IMG/VR virus record: IMGVR_UViG_3300023099_000006 | Span: 1 to 38,034 of that record | Length of the DNA: 38,034 bases | Reading direction: 5' to 3' (one strand) | Origin: a virus | Shown: positions 539 through 25,610 of the stretch, piece by piece | Layout: each line of letters begins with the position of its first letter | Numbering within the stretch: the first letter of the stretch is position 1 | Made by a program: the position numbers and the translations under genes | The notes under the pieces: model-generated | Told to the model about the DNA's origin: nothing | What the model saw: only the letters and a program-made list of their open reading frames with translations | The model's database searches: none

Positions 539-541
539 ATT

Positions 542-4737: not shown

Positions 4738-4738
4738 T

Positions 4739-6457: not shown

Positions 6458-6487
6458 ATCTAAACACATTCTGTAATCTGTTCGTTG

Positions 6488-6520: not shown

Positions 6521-6566
6521 TTCGTGTGACAATGAACAACAAGAGACGAACTAACTAATAACATTT

Positions 6567-6842: not shown

Positions 6843-7182
6843 TGATATAAACCAGGAAGATTTTGCCAAGATTGACGCATCGGCATCACTTATTGCAAAG
6901 GAAAAGTTCAACATCAAGAAACAGGTTAATAAGCATTTCCTTGTAGAACCTTCTAGTGGCCAGGTATATATGATCGCATTTGGTAACGGAGAGAAGAATG
7001 AGACCAATCCAAAGGGTTTTTATGCCTACTGGGTGTGGTATTTCAATGAAGAACCGTACGGAGGGCTCATTAATTGTGTCCTTACTGACCGTTACGACTC
7101 AATAGACTACTTTGTATCTTGCATGGGTAACGCGGAAGAAACTATTAAGACAGTCATCAATGCCAAAGAAGAAAACAATTAA
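6835..7182 (+). CDS. Hypothetical protein (115 aa)
   Basis: ORF track. Has an 8-nt overlap with the upstream gene. Confidence 0.6.
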   Translation: MTNDINQEDFAKIDASASLIAKEKFNIKKQVNKHFLVEPSSGQVYMIAFGNGEKNETNPKGFYAYWVWYFNEEPYGGLINCVLTDRYDSIDYFVSCMGNAEETIKTVINAKEENN

Positions 7183-8122
7183 GATTTTGATGGTCAACAG
7201 ACCAGAAAATCAATGGATAGGGGGCGATTTCATCAAATTAAAAGCCGTAGCTGAAGAGTTGCGTCTTTTAGGTGTTGAAGTAGACATATTCGAAATGGAA
7301 ACACTTGGTATGAACGAATGGTACGGAGTTGAGAGCTACGATATTGTACATACCTGGAACTTCTCTATGCTTTGGAGCAAATATGCCATCTGGTTGGGAG
7401 GAAAGAAAAAGAAAAAGCTTGTTTCGTCGATGATTTATCACGACACAGATGTTTTCATTGATTACAAGCTTCAACAGGTGATGATGGACCACATGGACGC
7501 CTGCATTTACGAGACTGAAAGCGAAATCGAACGAGTAAAGAAACATCTTACCCCAAAGAACTCACATATTATTCCAAATGGCGTAGATTCATGGTGGTTT
7601 GAGCCAGATGAGGGAAATGTACCATTCGAGGGCTATGTGCTCACTGTGGGCCGTATAGAGCCTAATAAGGGGCAATTAGCGACTGCAGAAGCATGCCGTG
7701 AGCTAGGATTGCAATACGTCTGCATAGGCGAGATAACAGACCAGGTTTACGCAGAGAAATGCCTTGCGCAAGGTGCAATGCTTTATCCAGCTATGACCAA
7801 GGAAAAGTTAAAGCGTTGGTACAAGAATTGTGCTGTCTATGCCCAAGTATCTAAGAGTGAAACATGGGGAATGGCGGTTGATGAAGCTGGTACGCAAGGT
7901 GCTCGATTGGTTTTATCCACTGGATTCGAGAGACAAGACATACCAGACGCTGTATACTGTGATCATGACAATACAAACCTTATTACCCAAGCGTTACAGC
8001 AAGCACTTTCTCAGCCGAGAGGAGAAAGATTTAAGTTACAGCTCAAAAAAAGGACGTGGAAAAAGCACGCGCAAGAAATCCTCAAAATCTACAAAGAAAT
8101 CTTAAAACAAACAAATGAATAA
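7160..8122 (+). CDS. GT-B fold glycosyltransferase (GT1/GT4-like)
   Basis: C-terminal pattern SETWGMAVDEAGTQGARLVLS resembles the E-x7-E motif of GT4 enzymes. IEPNKGQ is also typical. Start chosen at ATG 7160 (MPKKKTIKILMV); the track ORF begins at 7112. Confidence 0.7.
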   Translation: MPKKKTIKILMVNRPENQWIGGDFIKLKAVAEELRLLGVEVDIFEMETLGMNEWYGVESYDIVHTWNFSMLWSKYAIWLGGKKKKKLVSSMIYHDTDVFIDYKLQQVMMDHMDACIYETESEIERVKKHLTPKNSHIIPNGVDSWWFEPDEGNVPFEGYVLTVGRIEPNKGQLATAEACRELGLQYVCIGEITDQVYAEKCLAQGAMLYPAMTKEKLKRWYKNCAVYAQVSKSETWGMAVDEAGTQGARLVLSTGFERQDIPDAVYCDHDNTNLITQALQQALSQPRGERFKLQLKKRTWKKHAQEILKIYKEILKQTNE

Positions 8123-8765
8123 AAAATTTTCAATCATCTGTCCTACATTTAACCGACCTCACATGATTAACCGTGCAATCATGGCTATTCTTGACCAAGA
8201 TTACGATAACTGGGAGCTCATCATTCAAAATGGTGGAGATACTATAAAAAATATAGTGCCAAAAGATCCTCGCATTAAACTCTTTGAAGAAAAAGATAAC
8301 GGTATTACCGACGCCATGAACAAGGGTATGGCTAAGGCTACAGGTGATATATTTACTTGGATCAATGATGACGATGAAATGAACCAGGAAACACTTAAAT
8401 GGGTTGATGAAAACCTAGAAAAAGAATGGGGATATGGAATCATTATGATGACTGATGGTACTCGAAGCTTTGAATGGGGAGATGTAGGGACTAATGCTAC
8501 ATTCACTAACTTAGTTGAAGGAAACTTTGTACCACAACCTTCAGTCTTTTGGACTCGGAAGGCTTATGAAACAGTAGGTGGAATGGATGAATCAGAAGAC
8601 CTAACAAGTGACTATGAATACTGGATGCGTCTTTGGAAAGCATTTGAACCTCAGAAGTTTCAGAGACTTATGGCAACCTATCACTTGCACCCAGGACAGA
8701 TTACACAGACTCAAACCGAAGAGCAGATGCGTCAAGCTCGAGAGACAGCTAAGAAATACCGATAA
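8115..8765 (+). CDS. Family-2 (GT-A fold) glycosyltransferase
   Basis: N-terminal FSIICPTFNRPHMINRAIMAILDQDYDNWELIIQNGG and an acidic DxD-type motif WINDDDE. Confidence 0.75.
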   Translation: MNKKFSIICPTFNRPHMINRAIMAILDQDYDNWELIIQNGGDTIKNIVPKDPRIKLFEEKDNGITDAMNKGMAKATGDIFTWINDDDEMNQETLKWVDENLEKEWGYGIIMMTDGTRSFEWGDVGTNATFTNLVEGNFVPQPSVFWTRKAYETVGGMDESEDLTSDYEYWMRLWKAFEPQKFQRLMATYHLHPGQITQTQTEEQMRQARETAKKYR

Positions 8766-9127
8766 TGAATCCAGCAATTCTACCAGAGTTGGAAAGACTG
8801 CTGCCTGAGAGAGGCTATTTCGTGGAAGTCGGTGCTTATGACGGCGAATCTCACTCTTTGACATGTGCTTTGGCTGACAAGGGATGGTCAGGAGAATACT
8901 TCGAACCTGTACCAGAGTATTACGAACGCTGCAAGAAAAGACATGAGCAAAACGATGTAGGAGTTCATAATCTAGCAATAGGCGATGGTTCAGAGATTAC
9001 ACTCAATGTAAATGGTGAATTAACTTCATCAAAATCATATGTTGCAGAAGTATTCGCTAACGCTGGATGGACCGTTGACGAACATTTATTAGAACATTTT
9101 CAATTTGTAGTTGCACATAATGAGTAA
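8765..9127 (+). CDS. FkbM-like SAM methyltransferase, unusually short (120 aa)
   Basis: FVEVGAYDGESH (motif I-like) and YFEPVPEYYERC resemble the FkbM/Methyltransf_21 N-terminal half. I could not see the C-terminal half. Confidence 0.45.
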   Translation: MNPAILPELERLLPERGYFVEVGAYDGESHSLTCALADKGWSGEYFEPVPEYYERCKKRHEQNDVGVHNLAIGDGSEITLNVNGELTSSKSYVAEVFANAGWTVDEHLLEHFQFVVAHNE

Positions 9128-9998
9128 AATATTAATTACTGGAGGAGAAGGATTTGTAGGACGTGCTTTTGTACGCCTTTTGAAGGACGAACATCAATTA
9201 TATATTGTAGACTTAAAAACTAATGGAGACTGCCGTGATTTCTTTAAGAACTCTACAGAACAGTTTGATTTAGTTATTCATCTAGCAGCTATTGTTGGAG
9301 GTCGTATGATGATTGAAGGAAACCCTATAGCAGTAGCTACGGACCTTTCTATTGATGCAGAAATGTTTAATTGGGCAGTAAAGACTAAACAACCACGAGT
9401 AGTGTATTTCTCCAGTAGTGCAGCATATCCAATCGCTTTACAAAGACAAATGCCTTATAGATATCTTACCGAAAGTGATATTAAATTAAATGGTGACTTT
9501 ATCGGGAATCCTGATATGAGTTATGGTTGGTCTAAAATCACTGGTGAGATGCTCGCGGAATATGCCCGAAAACAAGGTGTAAACGTCCATGTGTTCCGTC
9601 CTTTTAGTGGATACGGTGAAGACCAGGACCTGGATTATCCATTCCCTTCATTCATCAAGCGCGCAAAGGACAAGGTTGAAGAGTTCGAGATATGGGGAGA
9701 CGGTACGGCAGTTCGTGATTTCATTCACATCGATGACATCTGCGAAGCTGTAATGAAAGCAGTTGAATTGGATATCCAAGAACCAATTAACCTAGGAAGC
9801 GGAGTGGGTACCTCATTCAACGAATTAGCTGAAAAGGTAATGGAAATTTCTGGTCTTAAGGTACCCATCAAACACCATGTTGATAAACCAGTTGGAGTTA
9901 TGTACCGAGTAGGGGATAATAGTAAGATGTTAGAATTTTACACTCCTAAAATTTCACTCGAAGAAGGGATTAAGCGTTCACTTGAATATGGAAAATAA
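9120..9998 (+). CDS. NAD-dependent sugar epimerase/dehydratase (extended SDR)
   Basis: ILITGGEGFVGRAF (GxxGxxG), YGWSK (YxxxK), GDGTAVRDFIHIDD. Confidence 0.8.
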   Translation: MSKILITGGEGFVGRAFVRLLKDEHQLYIVDLKTNGDCRDFFKNSTEQFDLVIHLAAIVGGRMMIEGNPIAVATDLSIDAEMFNWAVKTKQPRVVYFSSSAAYPIALQRQMPYRYLTESDIKLNGDFIGNPDMSYGWSKITGEMLAEYARKQGVNVHVFRPFSGYGEDQDLDYPFPSFIKRAKDKVEEFEIWGDGTAVRDFIHIDDICEAVMKAVELDIQEPINLGSGVGTSFNELAEKVMEISGLKVPIKHHVDKPVGVMYRVGDNSKMLEFYTPKISLEEGIKRSLEYGK

Positions 9999-11145
9999 AC
10001 CAAAAATACTTCTAATTTCGACCGATTGGAGTCAAAATACTTACAGGACAATTAATAACAAACCTGGTGCTATTTCACAGTACCGTCTTATCTATCCTAT
10101 GCGTTACTTAGAGGAATACTATGACATCGATTATGTAGGTCCTGATTTCGCTGACAAGGTTGCAGGAAAAGACAAAGGTGCTGCATTTCATCGTTTCTTT
10201 TCTGATTACGACATGGTAATTAGTAAGATTACAGACAACCCTACAGCTGCTTCTGATATTCGATTCATGACTAGATATCTCGGTGTTGTTTTGGTAGTGG
10301 ACATCGACGATAACATTTGGGAACTCAAGCCAGATCAACCAGGATATGAAATCTATAACAAGGGAGGTGCAAGACTTGGCTTTGCTTCCACATACGTTTC
10401 AAATGCAGACGCGGTGTTTTCATCGACCAAACCTCTCGCTGATTACATCTCAAACCGAATGAAAGAAGCTCATGGTGAAGATAAACCTGTTTATGTATTA
10501 CCTAACTGTGTAGACACTAACGACTATCAGTTTCAAAAGGCTAAATTAGACCCAAATAAGATAGTTATCGGATGGCAAGGTTCTACTACTCACCATGAAG
10601 ACCTCAGAATTGCTATGCCAGCTATCGGAAAGCTTATGCAAGAATACCCAAATCTCTACCTAGAGCTTATGGGCGGTGTTTCTGACGAGATGGTAGGTGA
10701 TTTGTTTAAAGATATGCCAGAAGAATTACTTGAAAGAGTGAGAACTATCGGAGGAGGACCAGCATTTGACACCTTTCCTCATCTTTTAAGCGAGCAGGCA
10801 TGGGATATTGCTATTGCTCCTATCACAGACCATGCTTTTAATCATGCTAAGAGTCATATCAAGTGGATGGAATACGCAATGTATTCGATTCCTTGTGTTG
10901 CTTCAAAGGTTTACCCCTATTACATGCCCATCCAAGGAACCGATACCATCGTAGACGGAACTACAGGGCTTATCGCAGACGAAAAAGAATGGTATGATAA
11001 GTTGAAGTTACTTATAGACAACAAAAATCTCAGAGAAGAGATTGGAATAAATGCAAACATGTATGTTTCAAAGCATTGGCATATAAAAGAACATGTTAAA
11101 AAATGGAAAGAAGCAATAGACATGTTGTTAGAATCTAACTCGTAA
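9988..11145 (+). CDS. Second GT-B-like glycosyltransferase
   Basis: IVIGWQGSTTHHEDL...YPNLYLELMGG and KWMEYAMYSIPCVAS resemble the C-terminal Rossmann half of GT-B enzymes. Alternative start TTG 9982. Confidence 0.55.
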   Translation: MENKPKILLISTDWSQNTYRTINNKPGAISQYRLIYPMRYLEEYYDIDYVGPDFADKVAGKDKGAAFHRFFSDYDMVISKITDNPTAASDIRFMTRYLGVVLVVDIDDNIWELKPDQPGYEIYNKGGARLGFASTYVSNADAVFSSTKPLADYISNRMKEAHGEDKPVYVLPNCVDTNDYQFQKAKLDPNKIVIGWQGSTTHHEDLRIAMPAIGKLMQEYPNLYLELMGGVSDEMVGDLFKDMPEELLERVRTIGGGPAFDTFPHLLSEQAWDIAIAPITDHAFNHAKSHIKWMEYAMYSIPCVASKVYPYYMPIQGTDTIVDGTTGLIADEKEWYDKLKLLIDNKNLREEIGINANMYVSKHWHIKEHVKKWKEAIDMLLESNS

Positions 11146-14764: not shown

Positions 14765-16267
14765 ATGGCTACTTCTCCAATTTTAAAATCTTCGAAGACA
14801 AATAGCACTTATAATATTAAGACAGGCGAACTTTCTAATGGTCCTACTGTTTATGCACCAAATACTGTTCTTCGTAATACTGATGCTCAAAATCAGGTAC
14901 TAGCTAATGCAAACCCCCAAGCTTTCGATGTTGCAGCTAACATGGCAGGATTTTCTAATTTTCCTGTTTCCCAGTCAAACATTCCTTCTGTTGTACCCGT
15001 ATCAGGTCTAAGTGCTACACCAGTTAATTTAATGCCCACACAAGTGCCTACAGCCGCTGTAGGAGGCATTGCAGCTCTTGGTCAACAGGCTCTAAGTGTT
15101 CAGGACCAATTCCTTCAACAACAACAGGCACAACTTGCTTCACAACAGAATCAAGTTACCACTCAGCAGAATGGTATCGCAGATGTCTATACTCGTCTTT
15201 TTGGTCAAGCTAATAGAAATGAAGACATTTATAAAGATTTAGGAGTAGATGATGCTCAAAAGGCAGTAAACAATTACACTTCACAAATTGAACAGGAGCA
15301 ACTCGCTAATCGTCGGCAAATAGAAGAACTTCAAAAGAATCCTAACGGTATGACAGCACAGGCACTTTCTGCAACTACACAAGAAGTAAATCGTAAGAGT
15401 CTATCACAGCAAGCTGACTTAGCTGTTCTTCAAGGTGCAGCAGCTCGTAACTTTGATGCCGTATCTTCAGCGGCAGACCGTAAGATTGCAGCAGAAACAG
15501 AAGGACTCAAACTAGAACTTCAAGCTAGACAATTCTTTTATCAAGAGAATAAGGAGGATTACAACAAGACTGAACAACGCATTTACGAACAGCAGAACAA
15601 GAAGATTGAGACAGAGATTAAGAACAAAGAAAATGGTCAGAAAATGATTGTTGAAGCTGTATCTTTTGGAGCTCCTAATGCAGTCATTCAACAAGCACAA
15701 GCTGCATACAATAATGGTGCAAGCCCTACAGAAATTGCAAGAATCATAGGAACTTACACTCCTGCAGGATTAGCAGCTCAAACAGAACGTTTACAGCAAC
15801 AAAATATTCGTAGTCAGATAGCTGAAAGACAGCAAGCAGGGAATGCAGCTGGAACTATTAATGGTAAACCTCAAAATGCAACACAGGCTACAGCTAATAC
15901 GTATGCAAATCGTCTAGCCGAAGCTAATGTGACCCTAGATACTCTTGGAGGGAAATTCACAGGAGTAGGAACTGCAATCGGTAATGTGTTGGGAGGTTTA
16001 GTTCCTAATTTCTTGAAAGGAGGAGATAGACAAGCTGTTGAACAAGCACAAAAGAACTTTGTTACTGCCATCCTTCGACGTGAATCAGGTGCGTCTATCG
16101 CTCCTACTGAATTCCAAACTGCCGCAGAAATTTATTTCCCTCAGCCAGGAGATAAACCAGAAGTTGTTCAACAAAAAGCTATCACTCGTAATAGTGCAAT
16201 CAATAACTTTTATAAGGAAGCTAATGCATTTAGACCAGTATTACCAGGTCAGATAATTCAGAGTTAA
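14765..16267 (+). CDS. Internal virion/ejection-type protein (putative)
   Basis: 500 aa, Q/A-rich and coiled-coil-like (QQQQAQLASQQNQVTTQQ). Position after the nozzle-like gene. Confidence 0.4.
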   Translation: MATSPILKSSKTNSTYNIKTGELSNGPTVYAPNTVLRNTDAQNQVLANANPQAFDVAANMAGFSNFPVSQSNIPSVVPVSGLSATPVNLMPTQVPTAAVGGIAALGQQALSVQDQFLQQQQAQLASQQNQVTTQQNGIADVYTRLFGQANRNEDIYKDLGVDDAQKAVNNYTSQIEQEQLANRRQIEELQKNPNGMTAQALSATTQEVNRKSLSQQADLAVLQGAAARNFDAVSSAADRKIAAETEGLKLELQARQFFYQENKEDYNKTEQRIYEQQNKKIETEIKNKENGQKMIVEAVSFGAPNAVIQQAQAAYNNGASPTEIARIIGTYTPAGLAAQTERLQQQNIRSQIAERQQAGNAAGTINGKPQNATQATANTYANRLAEANVTLDTLGGKFTGVGTAIGNVLGGLVPNFLKGGDRQAVEQAQKNFVTAILRRESGASIAPTEFQTAAEIYFPQPGDKPEVVQQKAITRNSAINNFYKEANAFRPVLPGQIIQS

Positions 16268-16269
16268 TT

Positions 16270-17784
16270 ATGGCACAATATAAAGTAAACCCAGACGGAA
16301 CTACCGCAACAGATTTAGAAACAGGAAAGACTATAAATATTAGTCAACTCAAAAGCTACAATGTAGTTGCGGGTCCAGCGACAGGTATTCCTGATCCTAA
16401 ACCTAAGACATCATTGGGTCAAAAAATATTGGATGCAGGTAGTTCTGTGGCTAAATTTGTAGGTGCAGAAGGAATAGCAGAGCAGTATGGTTCTACTATC
16501 GCTAAAGCACAAGCTAATACACAGCAAGAAAAAGATTTAGTTGAAAGTCCTTCCTTAAAGAAGGTTGTTGGGTCAGCTATTCAAACAGGTGCCAATCTTA
16601 TTCCTGGAGCAGGAAAGGGGGTTGGTTTGTTGGGTAAAACTTTGGCAGGAGCAGGAACTGGTTTAGCATTTGATGTAGGTTCCCAACTTCAAAACGATCA
16701 AGCTGTTTCTCCAGGCGTTGGAACTATCGTTGGAGCTGCACTACCAGGTGCTGGAGCAATATTGAAACCAGTTACAAAAATTGTGGGAAGGTTGTTTAAA
16801 GGAATTGGATCAGGACTTTCAGGAGTTTCTACTGACACTATAGAAAAAATCGTTTCTAATCCTGAAACTGCTCAAAAAGTATCTGAAAAATTGGCTAAAA
16901 CAGGTAATAGCAAACTTCTAGAAGAGAACACAAGAAAGGTTGTTAACGGAGTTTCAACTATTAAAAGAGAGGCAAGAGACGCTTTTGCTAAAGGGCTTGA
17001 CGAGCTTTCTGGTGTTGATATTGTCCCTGACAACGTAAGAACTGGTGTAGTAGGGGCTCTAGAAAAAAATGGAATCTCTATAGTAGATGATGGTGTTAAT
17101 TTCTCTGGCGCAGATTTTCTTGACGCAAATGTACAAAAAAAGGCAGAAAATATAATCAATACTATAAATGAAACTAAGGATTTGACTGGTACAGGAGTAA
17201 GAAAACTCATGGACATAGTTGATAGTGCAAAATTTAAATCAGCTCCAGATGGGGAACGACAGGCATTCAACGCCTTGATGAATGATATTAAGTCTGGTTT
17301 AAGAGATGGGGTGAGTAAGTCAACCACAAAACTTGATGAAATAAATGCGAAATACTCGGCTGATTTGCAGTTAGCTGAAACAGTAGAAGATATATTTGGT
17401 AACGTAAATTATAAAAATCTTCCTGAACTAGTGAAAGCTTCAAAAAAATTAGAAACAATGTTCGCTCAAAAAGGGCTTGCACCAGAAGTTATAGATGATT
17501 TCTTAACGAGAATAGGGGAGAATGCTGATGATTTCAAAACCTCAGAAGCAGTAAGACAAATTAGCAACAAATCTACAGGAGCAAACACAACTGGATTAAG
17601 TATTGGCGAAGTAGTACAACAAGCTACTAGCTCTGTAATTACTCCAAAAATGGTTAAGAATATAGCTACAATTACTGGCTTGGCAGAAAAAAAGGTTATG
17701 CCTTTCCTTCGTCAACTAAAGCCCGCCGCGCGAAATACCGTAATACAGGCTCTAATATCAACGAATCAATCAGGTTCCAAATAA
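16270..17784 (+). CDS. Internal virion/ejection-type protein (putative)
   Basis: 504 aa, G/A-rich hydrophobic N-terminal third (GAGKGVGLLGKTLAGAGTGLAF...), helical remainder. Confidence 0.4.
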   Translation: MAQYKVNPDGTTATDLETGKTINISQLKSYNVVAGPATGIPDPKPKTSLGQKILDAGSSVAKFVGAEGIAEQYGSTIAKAQANTQQEKDLVESPSLKKVVGSAIQTGANLIPGAGKGVGLLGKTLAGAGTGLAFDVGSQLQNDQAVSPGVGTIVGAALPGAGAILKPVTKIVGRLFKGIGSGLSGVSTDTIEKIVSNPETAQKVSEKLAKTGNSKLLEENTRKVVNGVSTIKREARDAFAKGLDELSGVDIVPDNVRTGVVGALEKNGISIVDDGVNFSGADFLDANVQKKAENIINTINETKDLTGTGVRKLMDIVDSAKFKSAPDGERQAFNALMNDIKSGLRDGVSKSTTKLDEINAKYSADLQLAETVEDIFGNVNYKNLPELVKASKKLETMFAQKGLAPEVIDDFLTRIGENADDFKTSEAVRQISNKSTGANTTGLSIGEVVQQATSSVITPKMVKNIATITGLAEKKVMPFLRQLKPAARNTVIQALISTNQSGSK

Positions 17785-17890
17785 ACCCTATTATCATAAT
17801 TAAGCAAAATGCTTTAAATATGAAATAAATTATTGTTATCATATTTTTGATACTACAGTACATTACAAAAACGTCAATAACTTTATCCAC

Positions 17891-17919
17891 TTGCAACAGT
17901 TCTTCACTAGTTCTATAAT
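17891..17919 (+). promoter_or_regulatory. Well-formed sigma70-type promoter: TTGCAA, 17-nt spacer, TATAAT
   Basis: -35 at 17891..17896 and -10 at 17914..17919, in a 240-bp AT-rich gap upstream of gene 18025. Confidence 0.55.
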
Positions 17920-18024
17920 AAGAGTGTAGTCATATCGACTATGAGAACTTATGAATTCGCACAATATATCTTTCGCGACACTAAATATTAAACAAATGGT
18001 TCTTAAATCAGGATATACTAGTAC

Positions 18025-18618
18025 TTGTATATGCCTCCCAACCATTTACCTGAGCTTGAAAAAAAGATGAGTGAGCTTAGGGATTCAATAGCTGAATATG
18101 CTGACAAGTTCCCAAGAATTTTTTCAAATGTAAATCCTTACCTTAAGGAGAAAAGATTTAGTGGAAATTATCTAGAATATATTATTTTTGGTACAGCTCT
18201 CATAGAGAGTATTCTTTACAGGTTTTTTGATGTACTGGCTCATAGTCATAGTTACGATTCTTTCGTCAAGGAAATCGAATCTACTGGTACAGTTTCCGAT
18301 AGTGCTGATGTTAAGATGGTATCCCGTAAAGACGAGGATCCATTTGGTGCGCTAGTAAGGAAGTTGGTTAATGATTTTAATATTGACCAGACTTACCCTA
18401 ATTTATATAAAAAATTAACAACCCTCAAAATTAAAAGAAATGCGATCGCTCATGATTTCATAGATGAGTATGAAGGAGATTTTGATAAAGCAAATAATGA
18501 CTTCAAATCTTATGCTGACGGACAACCAATCGAACTACTTATAAATGAAATAGCTAAAATTTCTGATGATATTAGGAATAAACAGGATAGTTTCTTTAAG
18601 GAAAAGTTTAAAAAATAG
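18025..18618 (+). CDS. HEPN-like protein (Rx4H motif), putative RNase/abortive-infection-type effector
   Basis: 197-aa helical protein with LKIKRNAIAHDF, where R-N-A-I-A-H fits Rx4-6H and the RNxxAH form seen in AbiD/F-type HEPN domains. Confidence 0.5.
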   Translation: MYMPPNHLPELEKKMSELRDSIAEYADKFPRIFSNVNPYLKEKRFSGNYLEYIIFGTALIESILYRFFDVLAHSHSYDSFVKEIESTGTVSDSADVKMVSRKDEDPFGALVRKLVNDFNIDQTYPNLYKKLTTLKIKRNAIAHDFIDEYEGDFDKANNDFKSYADGQPIELLINEIAKISDDIRNKQDSFFKEKFKK

Positions 18619-18639
18619 GGATTCACTTCCCTGTTTTTT
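18617..18639 (+). terminator. Rho-independent terminator after the HEPN-like gene
   Basis: AGGGA / TCCCT stem, 6-nt loop, then G + TTTTTT (18634..18639). Confidence 0.6.
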
Positions 18640-18724
18640 ATTGAAATTTTGAGGCTCTAGAATCGTTTTTAAGCCCTTCTTTATCAAAACTTGATACCAT
18701 GGTAGTGTATACTTAACGTACAAA

Positions 18725-18829
18725 AAGACTCGGCTACAGTAATCCGCTCACGCAGCGGGGTTTTCTCTTAGCCGAGTCTTCCCTCCTGATGGGCGGATTT
18801 GTGCGTGTTAGAAATAATCGACTCGGCTA
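18725..18829 (+). promoter_or_regulatory. Three-segment alternative-pairing leader upstream of gene 18834
   Basis: AAGACTCGGCTA (18725..18736) pairs perfectly (12 bp) with TAGCCGAGTCTT (18769..18780). A second copy of GACTCGGCTA (18820..18829, ending 4 nt before the ATG) can pair with the same middle segment (10 bp). Confidence 0.5.
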
Positions 18830-18833
18830 AAAT

Positions 18834-19328
18834 ATGACAAAACGCAAGAAAAAAATCCTCTATGTAGTAGGAGGTTTATTTCTAATAGGATTAATCTTAT
18901 TAGGTTTTAGATACTATAAATATACTTATAAAAAAATATTTACTTACAAATCGAACATTAGTACTTTCTATAAATATGATCTTAATTGCTCCATTGAACA
19001 TTCATCGGGATTTTATAATCCTCCAGAGAGTTACTACACTGAGTTTACAGGTCTTGAAGAAGGAGGTCTTAAATTTACATTTAAAGATTTAACACAAGAC
19101 AATGTTACTTTTCTTATTAGTGATGCAAATGGAGTTCAAGATGGTGAGTTAGTGAAAATTGTTGATACTGATGTAGCAATTCAGCTAATTAGAACGTGGT
19201 CTACAGATGAAAGTGGAATTGAATTATTTACTATCTATAAGAAAACAGGATTCTTTAGTTACGCAAAGTCTGGCGAATATTACCTATTAGGAACGGTTGC
19301 AAAAACAGCATTTGGAACTTGTCACTAA
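18834..19328 (+). CDS. N-terminally membrane-anchored or secreted protein (164 aa)
   Basis: MTKRKKK followed by hydrophobic ILYVVGGLFLIGLILLGF, then a beta-rich domain with Cys52 and Cys163. Confidence 0.65.
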   Translation: MTKRKKKILYVVGGLFLIGLILLGFRYYKYTYKKIFTYKSNISTFYKYDLNCSIEHSSGFYNPPESYYTEFTGLEEGGLKFTFKDLTQDNVTFLISDANGVQDGELVKIVDTDVAIQLIRTWSTDESGIELFTIYKKTGFFSYAKSGEYYLLGTVAKTAFGTCH

Positions 19329-19342
19329 AAATAATCAAACTG

Positions 19343-19362
19343 GCTCCTTCGGGAGCTTTTTT
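19343..19362 (+). terminator. Rho-independent terminator (GCTCC-TTCG-GGAGC followed by T6)
   Basis: Stem 19343..19347 / 19352..19356 with a TTCG tetraloop. T-run at 19357..19362. Confidence 0.8.
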
Positions 19363-19370
19363 GTTATAAT
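19362..19370 (+). promoter_or_regulatory. Extended -10 element TGTTATAAT, 6 nt upstream of ATG 19377 (possible leaderless mRNA)
   Basis: TG at 19362..19363 and TATAAT at 19365..19370. The A of the ATG lies 7 nt after the hexamer. No good -35 is present. Confidence 0.35.
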
Positions 19371-19376
19371 TCTCCC

Positions 19377-19628
19377 ATGATTCCCCTACCTAATCGAGAA
19401 AAATTCATCAAACTACTTAAAGGTGGTATGGATATAAGAAACGCTTGTAAGGAAGCTTCCATAACTCGCTCAAACCTCTATAAGTACTTTAAAGATATGC
19501 CAGGATTCCGTACAGAAGTAGATGCTATAGTTTCTGAAGTATCTCTTAAGTCCGAGACACAAAAAAAGCTCCAAGAAGAAGCTAATTTGTTAGAGATCAA
19601 GAAGATGATTTTGAATCGGAAGAGATAA
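19377..19628 (+). CDS. Small helix-turn-helix DNA-binding protein (83 aa)
   Basis: DIRNACKEASITRSNLYKYFKD resembles the ...(S/T)RSTLYRYF HTH recognition pattern. Basic C-terminal helix. Confidence 0.55.
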   Translation: MIPLPNREKFIKLLKGGMDIRNACKEASITRSNLYKYFKDMPGFRTEVDAIVSEVSLKSETQKKLQEEANLLEIKKMILNRKR

Positions 19629-20159
19629 TTAAACTATAATTCCTAACCTGTCACTTTTAATATGGCTGAACTTAATAATGGGTATTTGTGTATGAAAATA
19701 TGAATGTAAGTTAACTTCATCAGTCAGTATCACAAGATTATTTTCCTTGGCTATTTCTACTAATGAAATATCAGTAAAACCGAAATCATGAATTGTTCTA
19801 AAATTTAGAGATAAGACTTTTTCTAATGGAAAATGAAGTTCTTTAAATCCCCTAAGCTTGTCTAAGAATTTTGTAAGATAGATATGAAAATGCGGACTCT
19901 TAACTTTTATTTTAGCCTGATTAGATATTTCAGCTAAAATAGATGGAGTAATAATTATCTCTGGTTTAAAATGAGAGATAAGTTCTAATAAAATATCGAA
20001 ATCTTCGGCGGTATATTTAGACTTAACTAATTCACATTCGCAAATATAATCCTTATTATAGATTCCTATAAGTAATAAGTGCAGTATATTCGTATCAATT
20101 AAAAGTCCAACCTTACCATACTTGGTACGATATTTTTTAATGTCATCAAACGAGTACAC
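19629..20159 (-). CDS. PIN-like nuclease (176 aa), putative toxin/effector
   Basis: LLIDTNIL (Asp22), TPSILAEISN (Glu77), FGFTDISLVEIAKENNLVILTDE (Asp130, Asp147) match the order of the four acidic PIN residues. Confidence 0.6.
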   Translation of the reverse strand: MYSFDDIKKYRTKYGKVGLLIDTNILHLLLIGIYNKDYICECELVKSKYTAEDFDILLELISHFKPEIIITPSILAEISNQAKIKVKSPHFHIYLTKFLDKLRGFKELHFPLEKVLSLNFRTIHDFGFTDISLVEIAKENNLVILTDEVNLHSYFHTQIPIIKFSHIKSDRLGIIV

Positions 20160-20165
20160 GTTTTA

Positions 20166-20426
20166 TTAAACTTTTCTGATCACCATTGAAAGAACTGTTC
20201 CCTCAGGAGTCACTTCAAAGTCTTTATATTCTCTCTGTTTGTCAAAAGCAAAATCACCAGTTATATCATAACTTAAAGTAATTTTATAATTCCCTCCTGC
20301 ATGAGTTAAAGCTTCTTCTAATCTAAAATTAGAAATTTTTTCTTTACTAGTTCCACTTGCCGCAAGTGCTGTAATTAAATATTCTAGAGCTCCGTTAACA
20401 GCAAGTGACAATGTTTCTTTTGACAT
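20166..20426 (-). CDS. 86-aa partner protein upstream of the PIN-like gene (antitoxin/regulator candidate; fold not recognised)
   Basis: ORF track. 6-nt gap to the PIN gene on the same strand. I see no RHH, AbrB, Phd or HTH motif. Confidence 0.6.
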   Translation of the reverse strand: MSKETLSLAVNGALEYLITALAASGTSKEKISNFRLEEALTHAGGNYKITLSYDITGDFAFDKQREYKDFEVTPEGTVLSMVIRKV

Positions 20427-20591
20427 ATATTCTCGTTATTTTTTGATTAGTCTTCGTATAGATATTCTATCACGATTGAGCCGCAAGCATAACAGATATG
20501 CACTACTTAAGCAATTAAGACACAAATTTTTTAATGTACTATTCCCCTCCTCTACTTGCCCATTTCATAGGTTGAGGACACTTACTATATC

Positions 20592-20700
20592 TTTTACGAC
20601 ATATATACAATAAAATAACCTTTAATCCCCTACCGCTATTCATAACGGTATTTTAACAATTCATGACTTTAACGTCAATACAATTATTATTTTACGACAT
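20592..20700. repeat. 11-bp direct repeat TTTTACGACAT (20592..20602 and 20690..20700) in the 347-bp divergent intergenic region
   Basis: Exact match read from the sequence. No ORF of useful length on either strand in 20427..20773. Confidence 0.7.
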
Positions 20701-20773
20701 TAGAGGTCCACCTTGTTTGCACCTCCCTTCCAACACATGTATACTGATGTTAATATAATACCCTAACTAAAAA

Positions 20774-23700
20774 ATGGATAAAGAACCAATAGAAATTAAG
20801 ATTACAGGAGATTTTGTAAAGACCAACGACTTCTTAAAGGTCAACGAAACAATCCTAGCTCTCATCAAAAAAGCTAAGAATGAAGGCGATACTTCAATGG
20901 AAGTAAAACTCCGTGAAGTGTGGAATGCTCTCACCGCTCTAAACGATTCTTATACCCAGATATCAAGCAATCTAGGTCTCACAGCAAAAAAACAGGAAGA
21001 AAAGATGAACTCGATTAAAAACGAGATTCTTTCGACTATCTCCGACTTTAAAAAGACATTCAGCAAGGAACTCTACAACAAGGCCGACATCGGGGAAATA
21101 CCAGAAGAACTTACGTCAGACCAACTCAAGGAAAAGCTTAAAGGAAAATTGTCGCTGGCTGACATAACCGACGGTAATATTCTCATTGACAAGAAAACCT
21201 TTGAAATGGCTATCATCGAGATAGGTGGAAAGCTGCAAGTGGTTGAAAAACGTACAGCTAAAGGTTATGGAGCACTCGGAGGTGGTTCTGAAGGTACTGG
21301 TTCCCTATTCTTGTCACGGCTTCGTGACGTCGATGTCACAGGTCTCCCCTTCATAAACGGTAAATATAAACTTTATAACCCTGGCGGTGGAGGAGGTTCT
21401 GCAGTATGGGGTGATATAACAGGAACCATTACAGACCAAACAGACCTTGTCGCTTACATAGCTTCACAAGTGTCTGCATCATCATTTTGGTCACGAGATA
21501 GTATAAATGGTGATATTTATCCTACTACTCTTACTGATATGGTATCTATTGGTAGTAACACTGCCACACATTCATTGACGTTAGGTTCAACAGCAACAGG
21601 GTATGCTGACTACAATACCGTAGACCAAACTACTAACTACGAACGTGCTCGTGGAGCATGGGTAAGTAACGTCTATACAATCACAACAGAGAGTGGTGGA
21701 ACTGGGGTAAACAGAAACCTTATTTTAACTGCTGGTTCAGGCACAGCACGAGCTCTCACTGTAAGAGGTATTCCTACTATATTAGGTGCAGTAACAGCTA
21801 TTGGTTCATCTGGTACTGGATCAATAAGCTCATTCGGAATAACTGGAACATTAAGTGCTTCTAGTAACATCCAACAAGGTCTTTCAATCTTTAATTCTAT
21901 TTCTCAGACTGGTACTGCTGGTTATCGTTCAATATTTGTATCTACATTTGAAAATACACTAGGTTCAGGATCAAAATATTTGATAGACCTCGGTACAAAC
22001 TCTGCAGCTAACGGTGCTGGAACACACACTTCATTATTTGTTGTCACAAACCAAGGTAATACTGGTATAGCTACATCAATACCTACTTCAACAAACGGCG
22101 GTATTGATATTGCATCTGGCGGATTTGGTCTAATAATTGGTGCAGACAATAATGCCTCAACTCGAACCAATGCTACAGCGAAACTCGCTCGTATAGGTGG
22201 TTATCATTACACAAACACTGAAGAACCTATAACGTTTATGACGATGAACGCTGCGTCAGGCGGTAATAATCTTAACATTGGTGGAGGTTCAGGAATCATG
22301 AACTCTGCAACGCAGATAGATTTCTATACAGGAGCAAACAGTACTACTCTCAATGGACTTTCTCGAATGACCATTACAAGCGCTGGTTTGGTCGGATTCA
22401 TGACTCAAGCTCCTACTCACAACATAACGATGAGTAGTACTTCAAATGGAATAGCTGACTACAATACCGCGGATCAGACCACAAACTATGAACGTGTTGT
22501 CCATCAGTGGAGTGGTAGTGTCTATTCTTTATCAGCAAATGCAGGTGGTACAGGAGTGCAACGTACCATCTCGACCATTGTTCAAGGAACCGTCCTTTCT
22601 GTAAACAACGCAGGAATCAGTACTACCATAGGAGGAGTAGACATCAGTCGAAGTGGAGCACATGGATTTCTTTTCTCCCTTGGTGGAGTTATTAACTCAG
22701 CGTTAATTCTTCAAAACATTCAATCAATATTCCCCAGTGTTAGCCAGTCTGGTACCGCAGGTTATCGAACATTGTGGATTTCACCGTATGAACAAACAAC
22801 GGGATCTGGTATTAAATACCTCATTGATGCAGGAACGAACAGCGCGGGTGGCGGTACAGGCACACATACATCTAAATTTATTGTTGATAACAGCGGTAAC
22901 ATGCTTTCAGCTGCTTCCGTTTACCATAACTTCGGGACTACCATCGGTACCACAGGATATGGTTTCCGTGACAACGCTGGAACGATGGAATACAAGAACT
23001 CAGGTGGATCATGGACGGCGTTCTCAGGTGGTGGAGGTACTCCAGGAGGCTCTACTACACAGCTTCAATACAACAACGCAGGCGCGTTTGGTGGAATTTC
23101 AGGCGCTACTACAAACGGTACATCCGTAACGTATACAGCAAATAATCTTATCGCTACAAGTCCTAGATTTATTACGTCAATAGACGATACTAATGGTAAT
23201 GAGTTGCTAGTTTTCGCTCCTTCTGCTTCTGCAGTTAATGAATTAACATTTTCAAACGGTGCAACGGGCAGTGCTCCTAAATTTATAGCTTCTGGTTCCG
23301 ATACGAACATTGGGATTGATTTCATGATGAAAGGTAATGCTACTATTAACTTTCTCGGTACATCTACTAAACAGGCTAGTTTTACCCTTTTTGAACAAAC
23401 GACAAACGGTTTTGATGGTATTGTTTTTCAAGCACCAGCTTCTATAACTACTTTTAGAATTCAAACCCTACAAGACGCAGACGGAACAGTAGCATTGACA
23501 CTTCCTTACGGCGCAAAAGCCTATAGAAACACGAGCGTACAGTCGATTCCTAACAACACGACGACTAAAATTCAGCTAAATGCTGAGGATTGGGACTTGT
23601 CTAATGAATTTGATCCGACCACTAACTATCGCTATACCGCCACTACCGCTGGTTACTACATGATTACTTGCGCGGTGAAATGGAACTCTGCAACTTCTGG

Positions 23701-23923
23701 TCAGTACTTCCAGATCGAAGTTCAAAAGAACGCCTCTACTGGACCTCTATTGATCGGTCAATATTCTGGAGGTTCGGGCACTCTGGTCATGTCTGGATCT
23801 AGCATGGTTCAGCTCGGCATCGGCGATTATCTCGAACTGTACGCCTACCAGACTTCTGGTTCGGCAAAGGACATCGGAAACGCTTCAAACGGCACCTTCA
23901 TGACGATCCAGCGAGTATACTAA
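20774..23923 (+). CDS. Tail fibre / receptor-binding protein (1049 aa) with a C1q/TNF-like C-terminal domain
   Basis: N-terminal coiled coil. WGDITGTITDQTDLVAYI is a fibre-type motif. G/S/T-rich beta repeats. C-terminus ...YRYTATTAGYYMITCAV...QIEVQKNAS...LGIGDYLELYAY...GTFMTIQRVY matches the C1q-like jelly-roll pattern. Confidence 0.8.
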   Translation: MDKEPIEIKITGDFVKTNDFLKVNETILALIKKAKNEGDTSMEVKLREVWNALTALNDSYTQISSNLGLTAKKQEEKMNSIKNEILSTISDFKKTFSKELYNKADIGEIPEELTSDQLKEKLKGKLSLADITDGNILIDKKTFEMAIIEIGGKLQVVEKRTAKGYGALGGGSEGTGSLFLSRLRDVDVTGLPFINGKYKLYNPGGGGGSAVWGDITGTITDQTDLVAYIASQVSASSFWSRDSINGDIYPTTLTDMVSIGSNTATHSLTLGSTATGYADYNTVDQTTNYERARGAWVSNVYTITTESGGTGVNRNLILTAGSGTARALTVRGIPTILGAVTAIGSSGTGSISSFGITGTLSASSNIQQGLSIFNSISQTGTAGYRSIFVSTFENTLGSGSKYLIDLGTNSAANGAGTHTSLFVVTNQGNTGIATSIPTSTNGGIDIASGGFGLIIGADNNASTRTNATAKLARIGGYHYTNTEEPITFMTMNAASGGNNLNIGGGSGIMNSATQIDFYTGANSTTLNGLSRMTITSAGLVGFMTQAPTHNITMSSTSNGIADYNTADQTTNYERVVHQWSGSVYSLSANAGGTGVQRTISTIVQGTVLSVNNAGISTTIGGVDISRSGAHGFLFSLGGVINSALILQNIQSIFPSVSQSGTAGYRTLWISPYEQTTGSGIKYLIDAGTNSAGGGTGTHTSKFIVDNSGNMLSAASVYHNFGTTIGTTGYGFRDNAGTMEYKNSGGSWTAFSGGGGTPGGSTTQLQYNNAGAFGGISGATTNGTSVTYTANNLIATSPRFITSIDDTNGNELLVFAPSASAVNELTFSNGATGSAPKFIASGSDTNIGIDFMMKGNATINFLGTSTKQASFTLFEQTTNGFDGIVFQAPASITTFRIQTLQDADGTVALTLPYGAKAYRNTSVQSIPNNTTTKIQLNAEDWDLSNEFDPTTNYRYTATTAGYYMITCAVKWNSATSGQYFQIEVQKNASTGPLLIGQYSGGSGTLVMSGSSMVQLGIGDYLELYAYQTSGSAKDIGNASNGTFMTIQRVY
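21570..22905 (+). repeat. Diverged in-frame internal duplication within the fibre gene, period about 849 nt (283 aa)
   Basis: GCTGACTACAATACCG occurs at 21605 and 22454. At protein level ADYNT(V/A)DQTTNYER...GGTGV(N/Q)R and SQ(T/S)GTAGYR...GSG(S/I)KYLID(L/A)GTNSA...GTHTS occur in both units. Confidence 0.8.
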
Positions 23924-24038
23924 CAGCCTGCAAATCGACAGGGATTAGGACACACAGAGTGCTTTCTAACTCCTGTCTGTTTGTCAAAGGAATAAGAGTC
24001 ATGACCAGCAGACAGGGTTAAAAGTAATCTTATTCAAA

Positions 24039-24614
24039 ATGTCAGTATACAAATTCTTTCCCAACCTAGTAGCAATTCAGGACTTAGGTCTCAATGCCGA
24101 CATGTCGGTTCGATTTTCAATTTACGACGGAAGCGTGATGTCAGCCGAGGATCGCGTAATCTTTTCCATAGCGGGAGTCACGAACAACCTGCAGTTCAAG
24201 GGAGCGATGGATGCCGCGATGCTTCATTACGCAAACGTCGACCACAGTTACGGAATGACGATAGACGACATCATCTGGGATTCGATACCAGACCTTGCGA
24301 CAACTACCATGCCAGGTCTCCTATCGGCTTCAGACAAGGTCAAGCTTAATTCGCTTAAACGCACTGAAAAATATTCTGGAACGACCAATTCTTCAGGCAT
24401 ATACACGGTGACATTCGGGACAGCTTTCTCAGCAGCTCCAAATATTCAGGCCAACATAATCGGAGCGACCGACACGCAAAACCTTCGCATCACAAGCATT
24501 TCAACTACTGGCTTCACGGTCACTGTAAGAAATCGTACTGATGTCGTCGGCTTGCTTCCTACATGGTCAAACGTGAACGGAGCGAACGTGGACGTACTAA
24601 TTACAGAAAAATAA
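24039..24614 (+). CDS. Second fibre-like / carbohydrate-binding-like protein (191 aa)
   Basis: MPGLLSASDKVKLNSL is the common fibre GLMSxxDKxKL-type motif. C-terminus YTVTFGTAFSAAPNIQANIIGATD...ITSISTTGFTVTV resembles an H-type-lectin beta-sandwich. Confidence 0.5.
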   Translation: MSVYKFFPNLVAIQDLGLNADMSVRFSIYDGSVMSAEDRVIFSIAGVTNNLQFKGAMDAAMLHYANVDHSYGMTIDDIIWDSIPDLATTTMPGLLSASDKVKLNSLKRTEKYSGTTNSSGIYTVTFGTAFSAAPNIQANIIGATDTQNLRITSISTTGFTVTVRNRTDVVGLLPTWSNVNGANVDVLITEK

Positions 24615-24687
24615 ATCACACAACCATAGGATTAACGTCCTGTGGAGACATCTTTAACTCCGAAGGGTCTCCCTAGAAACACAAACT

Positions 24688-24972
24688 ATGCAAGAAATAA
24701 AAAGAAAAAACGAAATAGAAATCAATAAATCAGCCGTAGTTAACAATGGAGTTGCTGTATTTGATTTAGGAACGGTATTTAAGACTATCTACAAAGACAG
24801 TGCGGAGTTCAGCACTCATAACTCAAAGTTTGTATATAGTTTTAGTGACTGTGAAATAAATGGTACAATTATGACCGTAAGAATACAGAAACTCGGCACT
24901 TCTGTAGGACCAGTACAACTCTACAGCCCAGCGAACAACATTAAAATTTATTTAACAATAAAAGCAATATGA
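24688..24972 (+). CDS. Hypothetical protein (94 aa)
   Basis: ORF track. Confidence 0.6.
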   Translation: MQEIKRKNEIEINKSAVVNNGVAVFDLGTVFKTIYKDSAEFSTHNSKFVYSFSDCEINGTIMTVRIQKLGTSVGPVQLYSPANNIKIYLTIKAI

Positions 24973-25178
24973 ATCACGAAACAACTACAGAATCAGAAGT
25001 AATAGACGGATGGGTCAAGACCACAGTAACCTCATGGGTTGAACAGCCAGACCGTGTTGAAGAACTTACCAAGCGAAAGGCACAGCTTGAAGCTTCCCTT
25101 GCCAATACTGAAAACCAAAAGACATCAATCATTGATGAAATCGAAGCAGTAAACGAGGAACTTGAAAGCTACGAATAA
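24969..25178 (+). CDS. Hypothetical acidic coiled-coil protein (69 aa)
   Basis: ORF track. ATGA overlap with the upstream gene. Confidence 0.6.
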   Translation: MNHETTTESEVIDGWVKTTVTSWVEQPDRVEELTKRKAQLEASLANTENQKTSIIDEIEAVNEELESYE

Positions 25179-25179
25179 C

Positions 25180-25371
25180 ATGCAGAAGATACCAAAGAAA
25201 AGTAACCTGATCTACATTAATGTCCAGGCAATAAGAAACAATACCAAGGTGATGATAGCCCTTATTCTTGCCATCTGTGTCATCGGAGCGGTTATTATTG
25301 GTGCACAGACGACAGTACGTTACGCGAAACCTATTTCTAATTTACTCCCCCATTATGGAACCTATGAATAA
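25180..25371 (+). CDS. Small membrane protein (63 aa from ATG 25180)
   Basis: Track ORF 25162..25371. ATG 25180 follows the upstream stop. One TM segment (VMIALILAICVIGAVIIGA). Confidence 0.5.
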   Translation: MQKIPKKSNLIYINVQAIRNNTKVMIALILAICVIGAVIIGAQTTVRYAKPISNLLPHYGTYE

Positions 25372-25507
25372 ACCATTCTTTGTAATTTCTTGTATCGTTT
25401 TGTCAATAATCCTTATTCTTGATATTATAAGTGTGATAAAGACATTTCATTTTCAGAATCAACTAATAAACGTGTATGAAACTAACAAGCAAAATCAAAG
25501 TCAGTAA
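25364..25507 (+). CDS. Small membrane protein (47 aa)
   Basis: ATG 25364 overlaps the upstream stop (ATGAATAA). TM segment FFVISCIVLSIILILDIISVI. The long track form from 25268 overlaps the previous gene. Confidence 0.4.
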   Translation: MNKPFFVISCIVLSIILILDIISVIKTFHFQNQLINVYETNKQNQSQ

Positions 25508-25610
25508 AAAACTCCCAGTTTCTAAGGCAGTTAATTTTTCTAAAAAGAAAAAAGCGCCTAAAGCTGATCCGAATAAGAAATATAAGGACAGTTATCCTGC
25601 CTACGCATAA
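25476..25610 (+). CDS. Possible small lysine-rich protein (44 aa)
   Basis: Hand-translated MKLTSKIKVSKKLPVSKAVNFSKKKKAPKADPNKKYKDSYPAYA. Its stop overlaps the next ATG (TAATG). Overlaps the previous ORF by 32 nt. Confidence 0.3.
   Translation: MKLTSKIKVSKKLPVSKAVNFSKKKKAPKADPNKKYKDSYPAYA

Follow-up and report, generated by a model that had tools for sequence, protein, structure and literature searches.

Why does a phage genome carry, just upstream of its tail-fibre gene, a block of almost 3 kb that differs from its surroundings in base composition, gene orientation and gene content? The question is raised by IMG/VR record IMGVR_UViG_3300023099_000006, of which we analysed the whole stretch of 38,034 nucleotides (hereafter, the window). 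A preliminary description, drawn from the sequence alone, had read the interval 17785–20773 as a self-contained accessory island of the moron or defence type. The accessory, self-contained nature of the block stands: it is absent from a related genome, its composition is foreign, and promoter-like and terminator-like signals of its own are present. We conclude, at a probability of roughly 60%, that positions 17893–20706 constitute a composite moron-type accessory island, which lies in the promoter region of the fibre gene and consists of four independent cassettes with conflict-related cargo. As such, the feature is a real but ordinary accessory island, the cargo of which is poorly characterised and partly novel.

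Results

The block is missing between the same two genes of a relative

The sole relative that we found, Joint Genome Institute contig Ga0247803_1003950 (hereafter, L008), is about 73% identical to the window at the nucleotide level on both sides of the island. By blastn, the two sequences are collinear over window positions 16049–17892 and then over 21186–21394, 24377–24859 and 25177–25550 (72–75% identity). The L008 homologue of the 504-amino acid (aa) protein encoded on the left flank is 76–78% identical to it and is followed, after 177 bp, by a fibre gene whose product has an N-terminus homologous to that of the window's fibre protein. The comparison of related genomes that the preliminary description had proposed therefore finds the island missing between the same two flanking genes, L008 being the only relative available for it. 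In the INPHARED phage collection, positions 17000–21500 had no nucleotide match and the 504-aa protein no tblastn match. Scans of IMG/VR with this protein, with an alignment made with its L008 homologue and with the fibre N-terminal motif found no relatives of the phage backbone; when the helix-turn-helix (HTH) protein of the island and the PIN alignment (see below) were included as queries, the sole yield was one viral contig with the PIN gene pair.

Both edges of the indel could be placed. Homology with L008 ends on the left at 17892 (..TCCACTT), as determined by blastn and pairwise alignment, and restarts on the right at 20707 (TCCACCTTGTTTGCAC..TATACT), so that the refined island spans 2814 bp, with junctions at 17892/17893 and 20706/20707. 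Its two ends are diverged copies of one promoter-bearing sequence with a common ACGTCAAT core, detected as an imperfect direct repeat, D2 (17855–17886 vs 20656–20687, 72% identity). In a three-way alignment, L008 resembles the left copy 5′ of the junction and the right copy 3′ of it, and hence we place the island within a duplicated fibre-promoter region. In this arrangement, the left copy would provide the first island gene with the upstream half of its promoter, and the right copy would leave the fibre gene with a promoter of its own. The junction repeat TCCACTTG was also considered as a recurrent phage signal and was rejected, as it is no more frequent elsewhere in the genome than expected by chance.

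T4-type phages are known for modular shuffling at promoters, in which promoter–stem-loop cassettes are exchanged. The island resembles this situation in that its ends are two related copies of a promoter region and that a promoter is kept on each side. It differs in that there is one repeat pair, seen against one relative, and that no such repeat family occurs elsewhere in the window genome.

The block is compositionally foreign

The GC content of the island is 32.2%, compared with 39.0% for the remaining genome. No window of the same size has a lower value; the next lowest non-overlapping one has 34.6%, and the island lies at z of about −3. In tetranucleotide usage, too, its distance from the remaining genome is the largest of all same-size windows. 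The hand counts of the preliminary description were correct for 19681–19740 (28.3%) and 21001–21060 (31.7%). Its range of 45–52% for 23761–24180 holds for most of the 60-nucleotide lines, which have 43–52%, and fails for one line with 31.7%.

The island also holds the only convincing minus-strand genes of the window, as had been claimed; other minus-strand open reading frames (ORFs) of at least 80 aa are probably spurious, because they overlap tiled plus-strand ORFs. All five island ORFs are intact and are as previously described, except for the start of the first one: the TTG at 18025 is not preferred, and the ATG at 18031, on which gene callers and homologues agree, is the most likely start of a 195-aa protein. 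The non-coding borders were likewise reproduced, at 240 bp on the left (17785–18024, counted to the TTG, or 246 bp to the preferred ATG) and 347 bp on the right (20427–20773). An independent assembly gave the same genome as a circularly permuted contig of 38,048 bp (ENA ERZ27228642), and the island alone is represented by a Logan contig of 2,664 bp (SRR7967960); the island is identical in three independent assemblies.

These observations bear on the possibility that the block is ancestral, in other words that it belongs to the phage backbone, encodes structural or assembly-related proteins and was lost from L008 by recombination between the promoter repeats. Imperfect direct repeats do lie at the island ends, and L008 has a left/right hybrid junction with a crossover at TCCAC(C)TT, as would be expected after such a deletion. 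On the other hand, the block differs from the remaining genome in GC content and tetranucleotide usage, none of the island proteins significantly matches a structural family, and bacterial chromosomes and unrelated phages are where the PIN pair and the HEPN-like protein have their relatives. We regard an ancestral origin as very improbable; even a loss in L008 would prove the block dispensable. Gain in the window lineage is favoured over loss because of the foreign composition, and either way the accessory character of the island is retained.

A PIN nuclease is encoded with a conserved PepSY-like partner

The preliminary description had recognised a PIN-like nuclease and an unrecognised 86-aa partner on the minus strand. 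The former call is borne out by the predicted structure and four catalytic acidic residues. The AlphaFold2 model of the 176-aa protein (pLDDT 83.6, pTM 0.80) was searched against the PDB with Foldseek, and the top 50 matches were almost all PIN-domain proteins, including PAE2754, AF0591, VapC, FitB, SMG6 and PIN-type RNase P; the top matches had a probability of 1.0, E values from 1e-3 and target-normalised TM scores of 0.55–0.68. In an alignment with the 10 relatives found in a large protein search (A1, 11 sequences), D22, T23, N24, E77 and D130 do not vary, and D147 occurs in at least 90% of the sequences. By its predicted fold, the protein is thus confirmed as a PIN nuclease. At the sequence level, all Pfam PIN models remained below their gathering scores (PIN, E = 0.0028; PIN_12, E = 0.0026 with the family consensus; PIN-TPR-GreABC, E = 0.0061), the PIN and partner family profiles had no meaningful match among PDB sequences, and no NCBIfam or Pfam model covers the PIN protein or the partner.

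The 86-aa protein proved to be a genuine partner, conserved beside PIN in many genomes. A hidden Markov model (HMM) built from four partners matches the ORF directly 5′ of PIN in 46 of 56 loci in GTDB, mostly with a 4-bp overlap. These loci span phyla of the Candidate Phyla Radiation (CPR), cyanobacteria and planctomycetes. The nearest relatives of the PIN protein (34–51% identity) all come from CPR bacteria, namely Shapiro-, Staskawicz-, Lipton-, Levyi-, Doudna- and Saccharibacteria, and relatives at about 30% identity come from Nostoc, other cyanobacteria and planctomycetes. Neighbouring genes differ from locus to locus: some copies of the pair have housekeeping genes on their flanks, one belongs to an element that carries a recombinase and a Rep gene, and one is found on a second viral contig. 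In a metagenome-assembled genome of Candidatus Staskawiczbacteria (contig_140728, 1–9000; L002), the pair borders a region densely packed with defence and mobile genes, which encodes a large serine recombinase, two GmrSD-type proteins, an OLD/AAA_15 protein, an EcoO109I-type restriction enzyme and several N6/N4 methyltransferases. In the viral contig (IMGVR_UViG_3300037518_000480, 6001–6605), partner and PIN lie beside a DNA methyltransferase gene and 5′ of that of the small terminase subunit; the PIN gene is split there into two overlapping ORFs of 139 and 77 aa, and therefore may be a pseudogene or reflect an assembly error.

What kind of protein is the partner? PepSY is the only domain that recurs in this family (alignments A5 and A6), at sub-threshold level in 3 of 23 members, and with the full profile the family consensus (..RLEExELSED..WLITLxYD..REYKxFxVDxxTGEVxSMKIRxV) matches PepSY at E = 3e-4 and 21.5 bits, the cut-off being 24. 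None of the 23 partners has a DNA-binding domain of the RHH, AbrB, HTH or Phd/YefM type. The partner thus looks PepSY-like rather than DNA-binding.

The architecture and distribution of the pair would fit a type II toxin–antitoxin (TA)-like module. Like VapBC-type systems, it combines a PIN-fold toxin candidate bearing four acidic residues with a small, co-oriented upstream gene in one operon, usually with a 4-bp overlap (a 6-nucleotide gap in the window), and its distribution is patchy and mobile, comprising mobile elements, a defence island and two phage genomes. Unlike VapC, the PIN protein of the window is long (176 aa vs about 130) and passes no Pfam PIN model; unlike VapB, the partner shows a near-threshold resemblance to PepSY in place of an RHH, AbrB, HTH or Phd domain. 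The literature searched did not yield any account of PIN being paired with a PepSY-like antitoxin. It is possible, and we suggest it only tentatively, that the pair represents an undescribed two-gene TA or abortive-infection family, in which a PIN RNase is held in check by a PepSY-like inhibitor instead of a DNA-binding antitoxin and which is shared by CPR bacteria, cyanobacteria, planctomycetes and their phages; the window would then be a phage with accessory genes suggestive of a CPR host, which carries this family alongside a new stand-alone HEPN-like one.

The first gene belongs to a small HEPN-like family

A word-indexed protein search with the 195-aa protein found only itself. An exhaustive HMMER search yielded 19 proteins including the query, 18 of which have 163–209 aa; the remaining one, a repetitive protein of 1,817 aa, was excluded from the alignment (A4, 18 sequences). 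G54, R136, H141 and G149 are invariant, giving the motif R-N-x-x-x-H (R-N-A-I-A-H in the window). The homologues stand alone: on a temperate-phage contig, one is situated between the genes for the integrase and Sak/RepO; another is on a further phage-like contig, and a third follows rpsI on a chromosomal contig of small size.

The sub-threshold matches of the family recur to HEPN models only (RiboL-PSP, MAE_28990 and Cthe_2314; RTasHEPN, CARF_HEPN, Csx1 and Csm6 in PADLOC). The window protein itself matches Pfam HEPN_MAE_28990 at E = 0.036, 4 of the 18 members match HEPN_RiboL-PSP (best E, 1.3e-4), and the HEPN-bearing models of PADLOC match at E = 1e-3 or weaker. The AlphaFold2 model (pLDDT 87) consists entirely of helices, and its weak Foldseek matches in the PDB include HepT, Csm6, AF_0298 and other HEPN chains, along with unrelated helical bundles; the family profile had no meaningful match among PDB sequences. 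The HEPN assignment of the preliminary description is thus supported by the invariant RNxxxH motif and the all-alpha model, whereas the HEPN models stayed below threshold and the fold search was not significant. We consider the protein a probable stand-alone HEPN-type RNase, its membership in the superfamily being not proven. It shares with the HEPN RNases (HepT toxins, Abi-type HEPN proteins, RiboL-PSP and the HEPN domains of Csm6/Csx1) a conserved Rx4H motif, a (predicted) all-alpha architecture and carriage by phages or mobile elements. It differs from them in that the family has no MNT or other conserved partner, and from minimal HEPN domains in that the 195-aa protein begins with two very long, atypical helices.

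Two orphan proteins complete the cargo

The 164-aa product of the second cassette has an N-terminal membrane anchor, as had been noted, with a hydropathy maximum of 2.29 at residues 7–25; the C-terminal domain contains two cysteines, C52 and C163. The protein is predicted to be anchored in an N-in, C-out orientation. It has no relatives among 5.8 billion proteins and no Pfam, PHROG, PADLOC, NCBIfam or PDB sequence match. Like the superinfection-exclusion proteins HK97 gp15, Sie2009, Ltp and T4 Imm, it is a small membrane-anchored product of an accessory phage gene, but it shows no homology to any characterised one.

Its gene is preceded by a 194-nucleotide leader with 42% GC within an island of 32% GC, which is more stably folded than shuffled sequences (z = −2.84). 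The leader contains a 10-nucleotide direct–inverted–direct triple, GACTCGGCTA (18727), TAGCCGAGTC (18769) and GACTCGGCTA (18820), and an internal terminator-like hairpin at 18743–18759. Two mutually exclusive folds were found, at −42.0 kcal/mol (the minimum free energy) and −36.9 kcal/mol, the weaker of which covers the bases just 5′ of the ATG. The term 'switch-like leader' used in the preliminary description is therefore apt in so far as two exclusive stable folds exist; the leader matches nothing in Rfam and has no homologous copies, and hence no basis for covariation. More generally, Rfam gave no match for the whole window at gathering thresholds or for the island at permissive thresholds. 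On the minus strand, the large hairpin of the leader is followed by TTTTTG, so that it could also terminate antisense read-through from the PIN operon.

The 83-aa protein of the third cassette had been called an HTH protein, and it indeed scores above the cut-off of Pfam HTH_7 (E = 2.5e-5; 24.8 bits vs 23.8). Its HTH is of the resolvase, transposase or terminase-small-subunit type, with weak PHROG matches to terminase small subunits (best E, 4.8e-5) and a weak match to an IS3 N-terminus. It has no relatives in INPHARED (tblastn) or IMG/VR. Two candidate relatives were tried and rejected: the serine recombinase adjoining PIN in L002 and in a further locus, L004, of which the protein might have been a remnant, shows no similarity to it, and the 49-aa gene 3′ of PIN in L004 is unrelated.

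With two orphans among five proteins, the patchy distribution that is typical of selfish TA modules, and a viral PIN copy whose split into two ORFs suggests decay, one may ask whether the block is selfish or hitch-hiking cargo, that is, addiction modules and orphans retained through post-segregational or post-recombinational killing, or through drift, without a phenotype for the phage. We think this quite unlikely, given five intact ORFs with expression signals, an island that is identical in three independent assemblies, and the intact catalytic residues of PIN and motif of the HEPN-like protein. A composite moron-type island with conflict-related cargo remains our preferred reading.

Each cassette is flanked by expression-signal motifs

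The features of the island are listed in Table 1. Promoter and terminator calls are consensus-motif matches, and the counts of each class over 14–26 kb were compared with those in shuffled sequences. Terminator-like sites are enriched (16 vs 7.0 ± 3.0 expected), and promoter-like and/or terminator-like motifs flank each cassette. The promoter previously noted at the left junction is present, with 10 of 12 positions matching the consensus, and so are both of the hairpin and T-run sites noted before. The first of these hairpins overlaps the stop codon of the HEPN-like gene and is listed by the motif scan on the minus strand.

The extended −10 motif of the third cassette overlaps the T-run of the preceding terminator. 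From its spacing to the ATG at 19377, the motif suggests that the mRNA of the HTH gene may be leaderless. The HTH and PIN genes converge without a spacer, their stop codons being adjacent at 19626–19631. Because the terminator-like hairpin of the PIN operon lies within the coding sequence of the HTH gene, the two cassettes may be transcribed convergently or interfere with each other by antisense.

Table 1. Features of the island and its borders, in window coordinates
Feature	Position	Strand	Basis or remark
Duplicated upstream region of the fibre promoter, left copy (..ACGTCAATAACTTTATCCACTT)	17855..17893	+	Direct repeat D2, three-way alignment
Promoter-like TTGCAA-17-TATAAT, exactly at the left junction	17891..17919	+	Consensus match; presumed promoter of the HEPN-like gene
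195-aa all-alpha protein, probable stand-alone HEPN-type RNase	18031..18618	+	Invariant RNxxxH, R136/H141
Terminator-like hairpin AGGGA-TTCACT-TCCCT (AGGGATTCACTTCCCT), then GTTTTTT (GTTTTTTATT)	18617..18639	+	Read from sequence
Structured leader, 194 nucleotides, 5′ of the membrane-protein gene	18640..18833	+	GC 42%; fold z = −2.84
164-aa orphan membrane protein	18834..19328	+	KRKKK, one transmembrane helix (about 7–25), C-terminal domain of about 135 aa
Terminator-like hairpin GGCTCC-TTCG-GGAGCT, then TTTTTTG	19342..19362	+	Scan; 6 pairs, 4 of them G-C
Extended −10 TGtTATAAT, 6 nucleotides 5′ of ATG 19377	19362..19370	+	Read from sequence; possible promoter
83-aa HTH protein with charged C-terminal helix; orphan	19377..19628	+	Pfam HTH_7
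Terminator-like hairpin and T-run, about 46 nucleotides 3′ of the PIN stop codon, antisense within the HTH gene	19567..19583	−	Scan
176-aa PIN-domain nuclease, putative toxin	19629..20159	−	Predicted fold and acidic residues
86-aa PepSY-like alpha+beta partner, putative antitoxin/inhibitor	20166..20426	−	Stop codon 6 nucleotides 5′ of the PIN start
Promoter-like TTGACG-17-TAAAAT with TG, presumed promoter of the partner–PIN operon	20650..20678	−	10/12 positions, consensus match
Duplicated upstream region of the fibre promoter, right copy; more diverged, contains a 21-bp insertion	20656..20715	+	L008 homology from 20707 (TCCACCTTG..)
Promoter-like TTTGCA-18-TATACT of the fibre gene	20716..20745	+	Kept in L008; outside the island, marks its right border

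Discussion

The five genes do not form a single system. Where the PIN pair or the HEPN-like protein has relatives, the other is missing, the membrane and HTH proteins have no relatives, and queries with the HEPN-like, membrane and HTH proteins found no match in about 60 PIN-pair loci. We therefore rejected the notion of one conserved system, there being no other locus that combines any two of the cassettes; the island is a mosaic of cassettes, because its five genes co-occur nowhere else. The first would comprise a promoter, the stand-alone HEPN-like putative RNase and a terminator; the second, the structured leader, the membrane-anchored extracytoplasmic orphan and a terminator; the third, the extended −10 motif and the small HTH protein; and the fourth, on the opposite strand, a promoter, the 86-aa PepSY-like protein, the PIN nuclease and a terminator.

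Morons have been defined as extra DNA relative to a related phage, of deviant GC content and with a promoter and terminator of its own, a concept developed with HK97 and HK022; in HK97, gene 15 lies in the tail operon and encodes gp15, a superinfection-exclusion membrane protein (PMC3594210). By its sequence, the block would qualify as a moron in this sense, because it is extra DNA compared with L008, deviates in GC content and has its own promoter-like and terminator-like motifs. Further parallels to the HK97/HK022 cases are the location within the late/tail region, separating genes that directly neighbour each other in a related phage, a GC content unlike that of the flanks, and the presence of one small membrane protein, comparable to HK97 gp15. 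By contrast, the window has four clustered cassettes in place of a single gene; neither an integrase nor a repressor is seen in the phage; and no island product is homologous to a characterised moron product. In this light, the island is an ordinary example of the uptake of 'more-on' cassettes by phages, with an insertion site that is cleanly resolved at a duplicated promoter.

What might the cargo do? As the preliminary description had supposed, roles in the virion, lysis or replication are not to be expected, since no such family was matched, apart from the weak matches of the HTH protein to terminase small subunits. From domain content and context, we infer a role in conflict, such as exclusion, abortive infection or addiction. 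The PIN pair would act as a type II TA or abortive-infection module: the partner would keep the PIN RNase bound and inactive, and loss or titration of the partner would free the enzyme. In contrast to VapB, this small protein would be a simple protein inhibitor and not a DNA-binding repressor. The HEPN-like protein could be a second RNase effector, and the membrane protein might work at the envelope, for example by excluding the DNA of superinfecting phages in the manner of HK97 gp15. Overall, the cargo would serve conflict between phages or between phage and host, or the retention of the island, rather than virion assembly.

Several results weigh against a composite moron-type island with such cargo. 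There is only one relative, so that gain in the window and loss in L008 by repeat recombination are not strictly separable. Promoter-like matches are not enriched over 14–26 kb (41 vs 34.9 ± 6.3 expected), and a promoter motif alone is weak evidence for that reason. The HEPN-like family passes no threshold of a curated HEPN profile, and Foldseek with its model found nothing significant in the PDB (best E, 0.9) or BFVD. The partner departs from canonical type II antitoxins, because it lacks a recognisable DNA-binding domain, and its similarity to PepSY lies below the Pfam cut-off. The search for a known defence system that the preliminary description had proposed was negative: none of the PADLOC-DB v2 models matched significantly, the only match being PD-T4-2_B to the HEPN-like protein at E = 0.019. 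Finally, no integrase or repressor is found among the window proteins scanned, and therefore the reason classically given for morons, namely that they are expressed from a repressed prophage, might not hold here.

This last point raises the alternative that the genes are tools of a virulent phage for host takeover or counter-defence. The HEPN-like and PIN proteins would then degrade the RNA of the host or of competitors in the course of the lytic cycle, the partner would time the action of PIN, and the membrane protein would alter the envelope while infection proceeds. The lack of an integrase would be in keeping with this, as would the placement of nearly all genes on one strand, like in virulent podoviruses, the position of the island in the late region and the grafting of its first promoter onto the fibre-promoter upstream region. 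However, the PIN pair is mainly a chromosomal bacterial operon found in many unrelated contexts, which fits a mobile TA-like module better, and the island is dispensable in L008. We consider a takeover function unlikely and favour the composite moron-type island.

The point most worth following is the conserved combination of a PIN nuclease with a non-canonical, PepSY-like partner, found in at least 46 genomes. Should the pair indeed be a TA or abortive-infection module, its partner would be a new type of antitoxin, and the pair would represent a conflict system in CPR bacteria and, if the host guess discussed below is right, in a phage infecting them. The HEPN-like cargo adds a small stand-alone family with an invariant RNxxxH motif that is found in phages.

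The phage and its possible host

By its recognisable gene content, the window is a podovirus-like phage genome of about 38 kb. It encodes the small and large terminase subunits, portal, major head protein and SU10-type adaptor, as well as an endolysin, a DnaD-like loader, NinG and Rad52. The head protein has only distant relatives, at about 32% identity, in Bacillus podoviruses of the Page/Pony type (tblastn, INPHARED). The proteins encoded just upstream of the island match no family, leaving their earlier label as ejection proteins unconfirmed, and a search for tRNA genes found none.

On the other side of the island, the fibre proteins (window 20774–23923; L008 1948–5226) are alike only over about 300 residues at the N-terminus (37% identity), where a single stretch, GGGSEGTGSLFLSRLRDVD.TGLPFINGKY, is highly conserved; the remainder is unrelated between the two phages, which fits host-range swapping directly beside the island.

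The nearest homologues of the PIN pair, the sole basis for this guess, make a CPR host possible. An AGGA, GGAG or GAGG motif occurs within 20 nucleotides 5′ of the start in just 1 of 38 plus-strand genes (starts at 542, 5546 and 20774, for example), and hence the phage, and presumably its host too, does not depend on Shine-Dalgarno pairing.

A run of genes of the glycosyltransferase, methyltransferase and NAD-dependent epimerase types occupies positions 7112–11145, where it separates the head genes from that of the SU10-type adaptor inside the structural module. This is an unusual location for sugar-modifying enzymes, whose targets might be the virion, by glycosylation, or the surface of the host.

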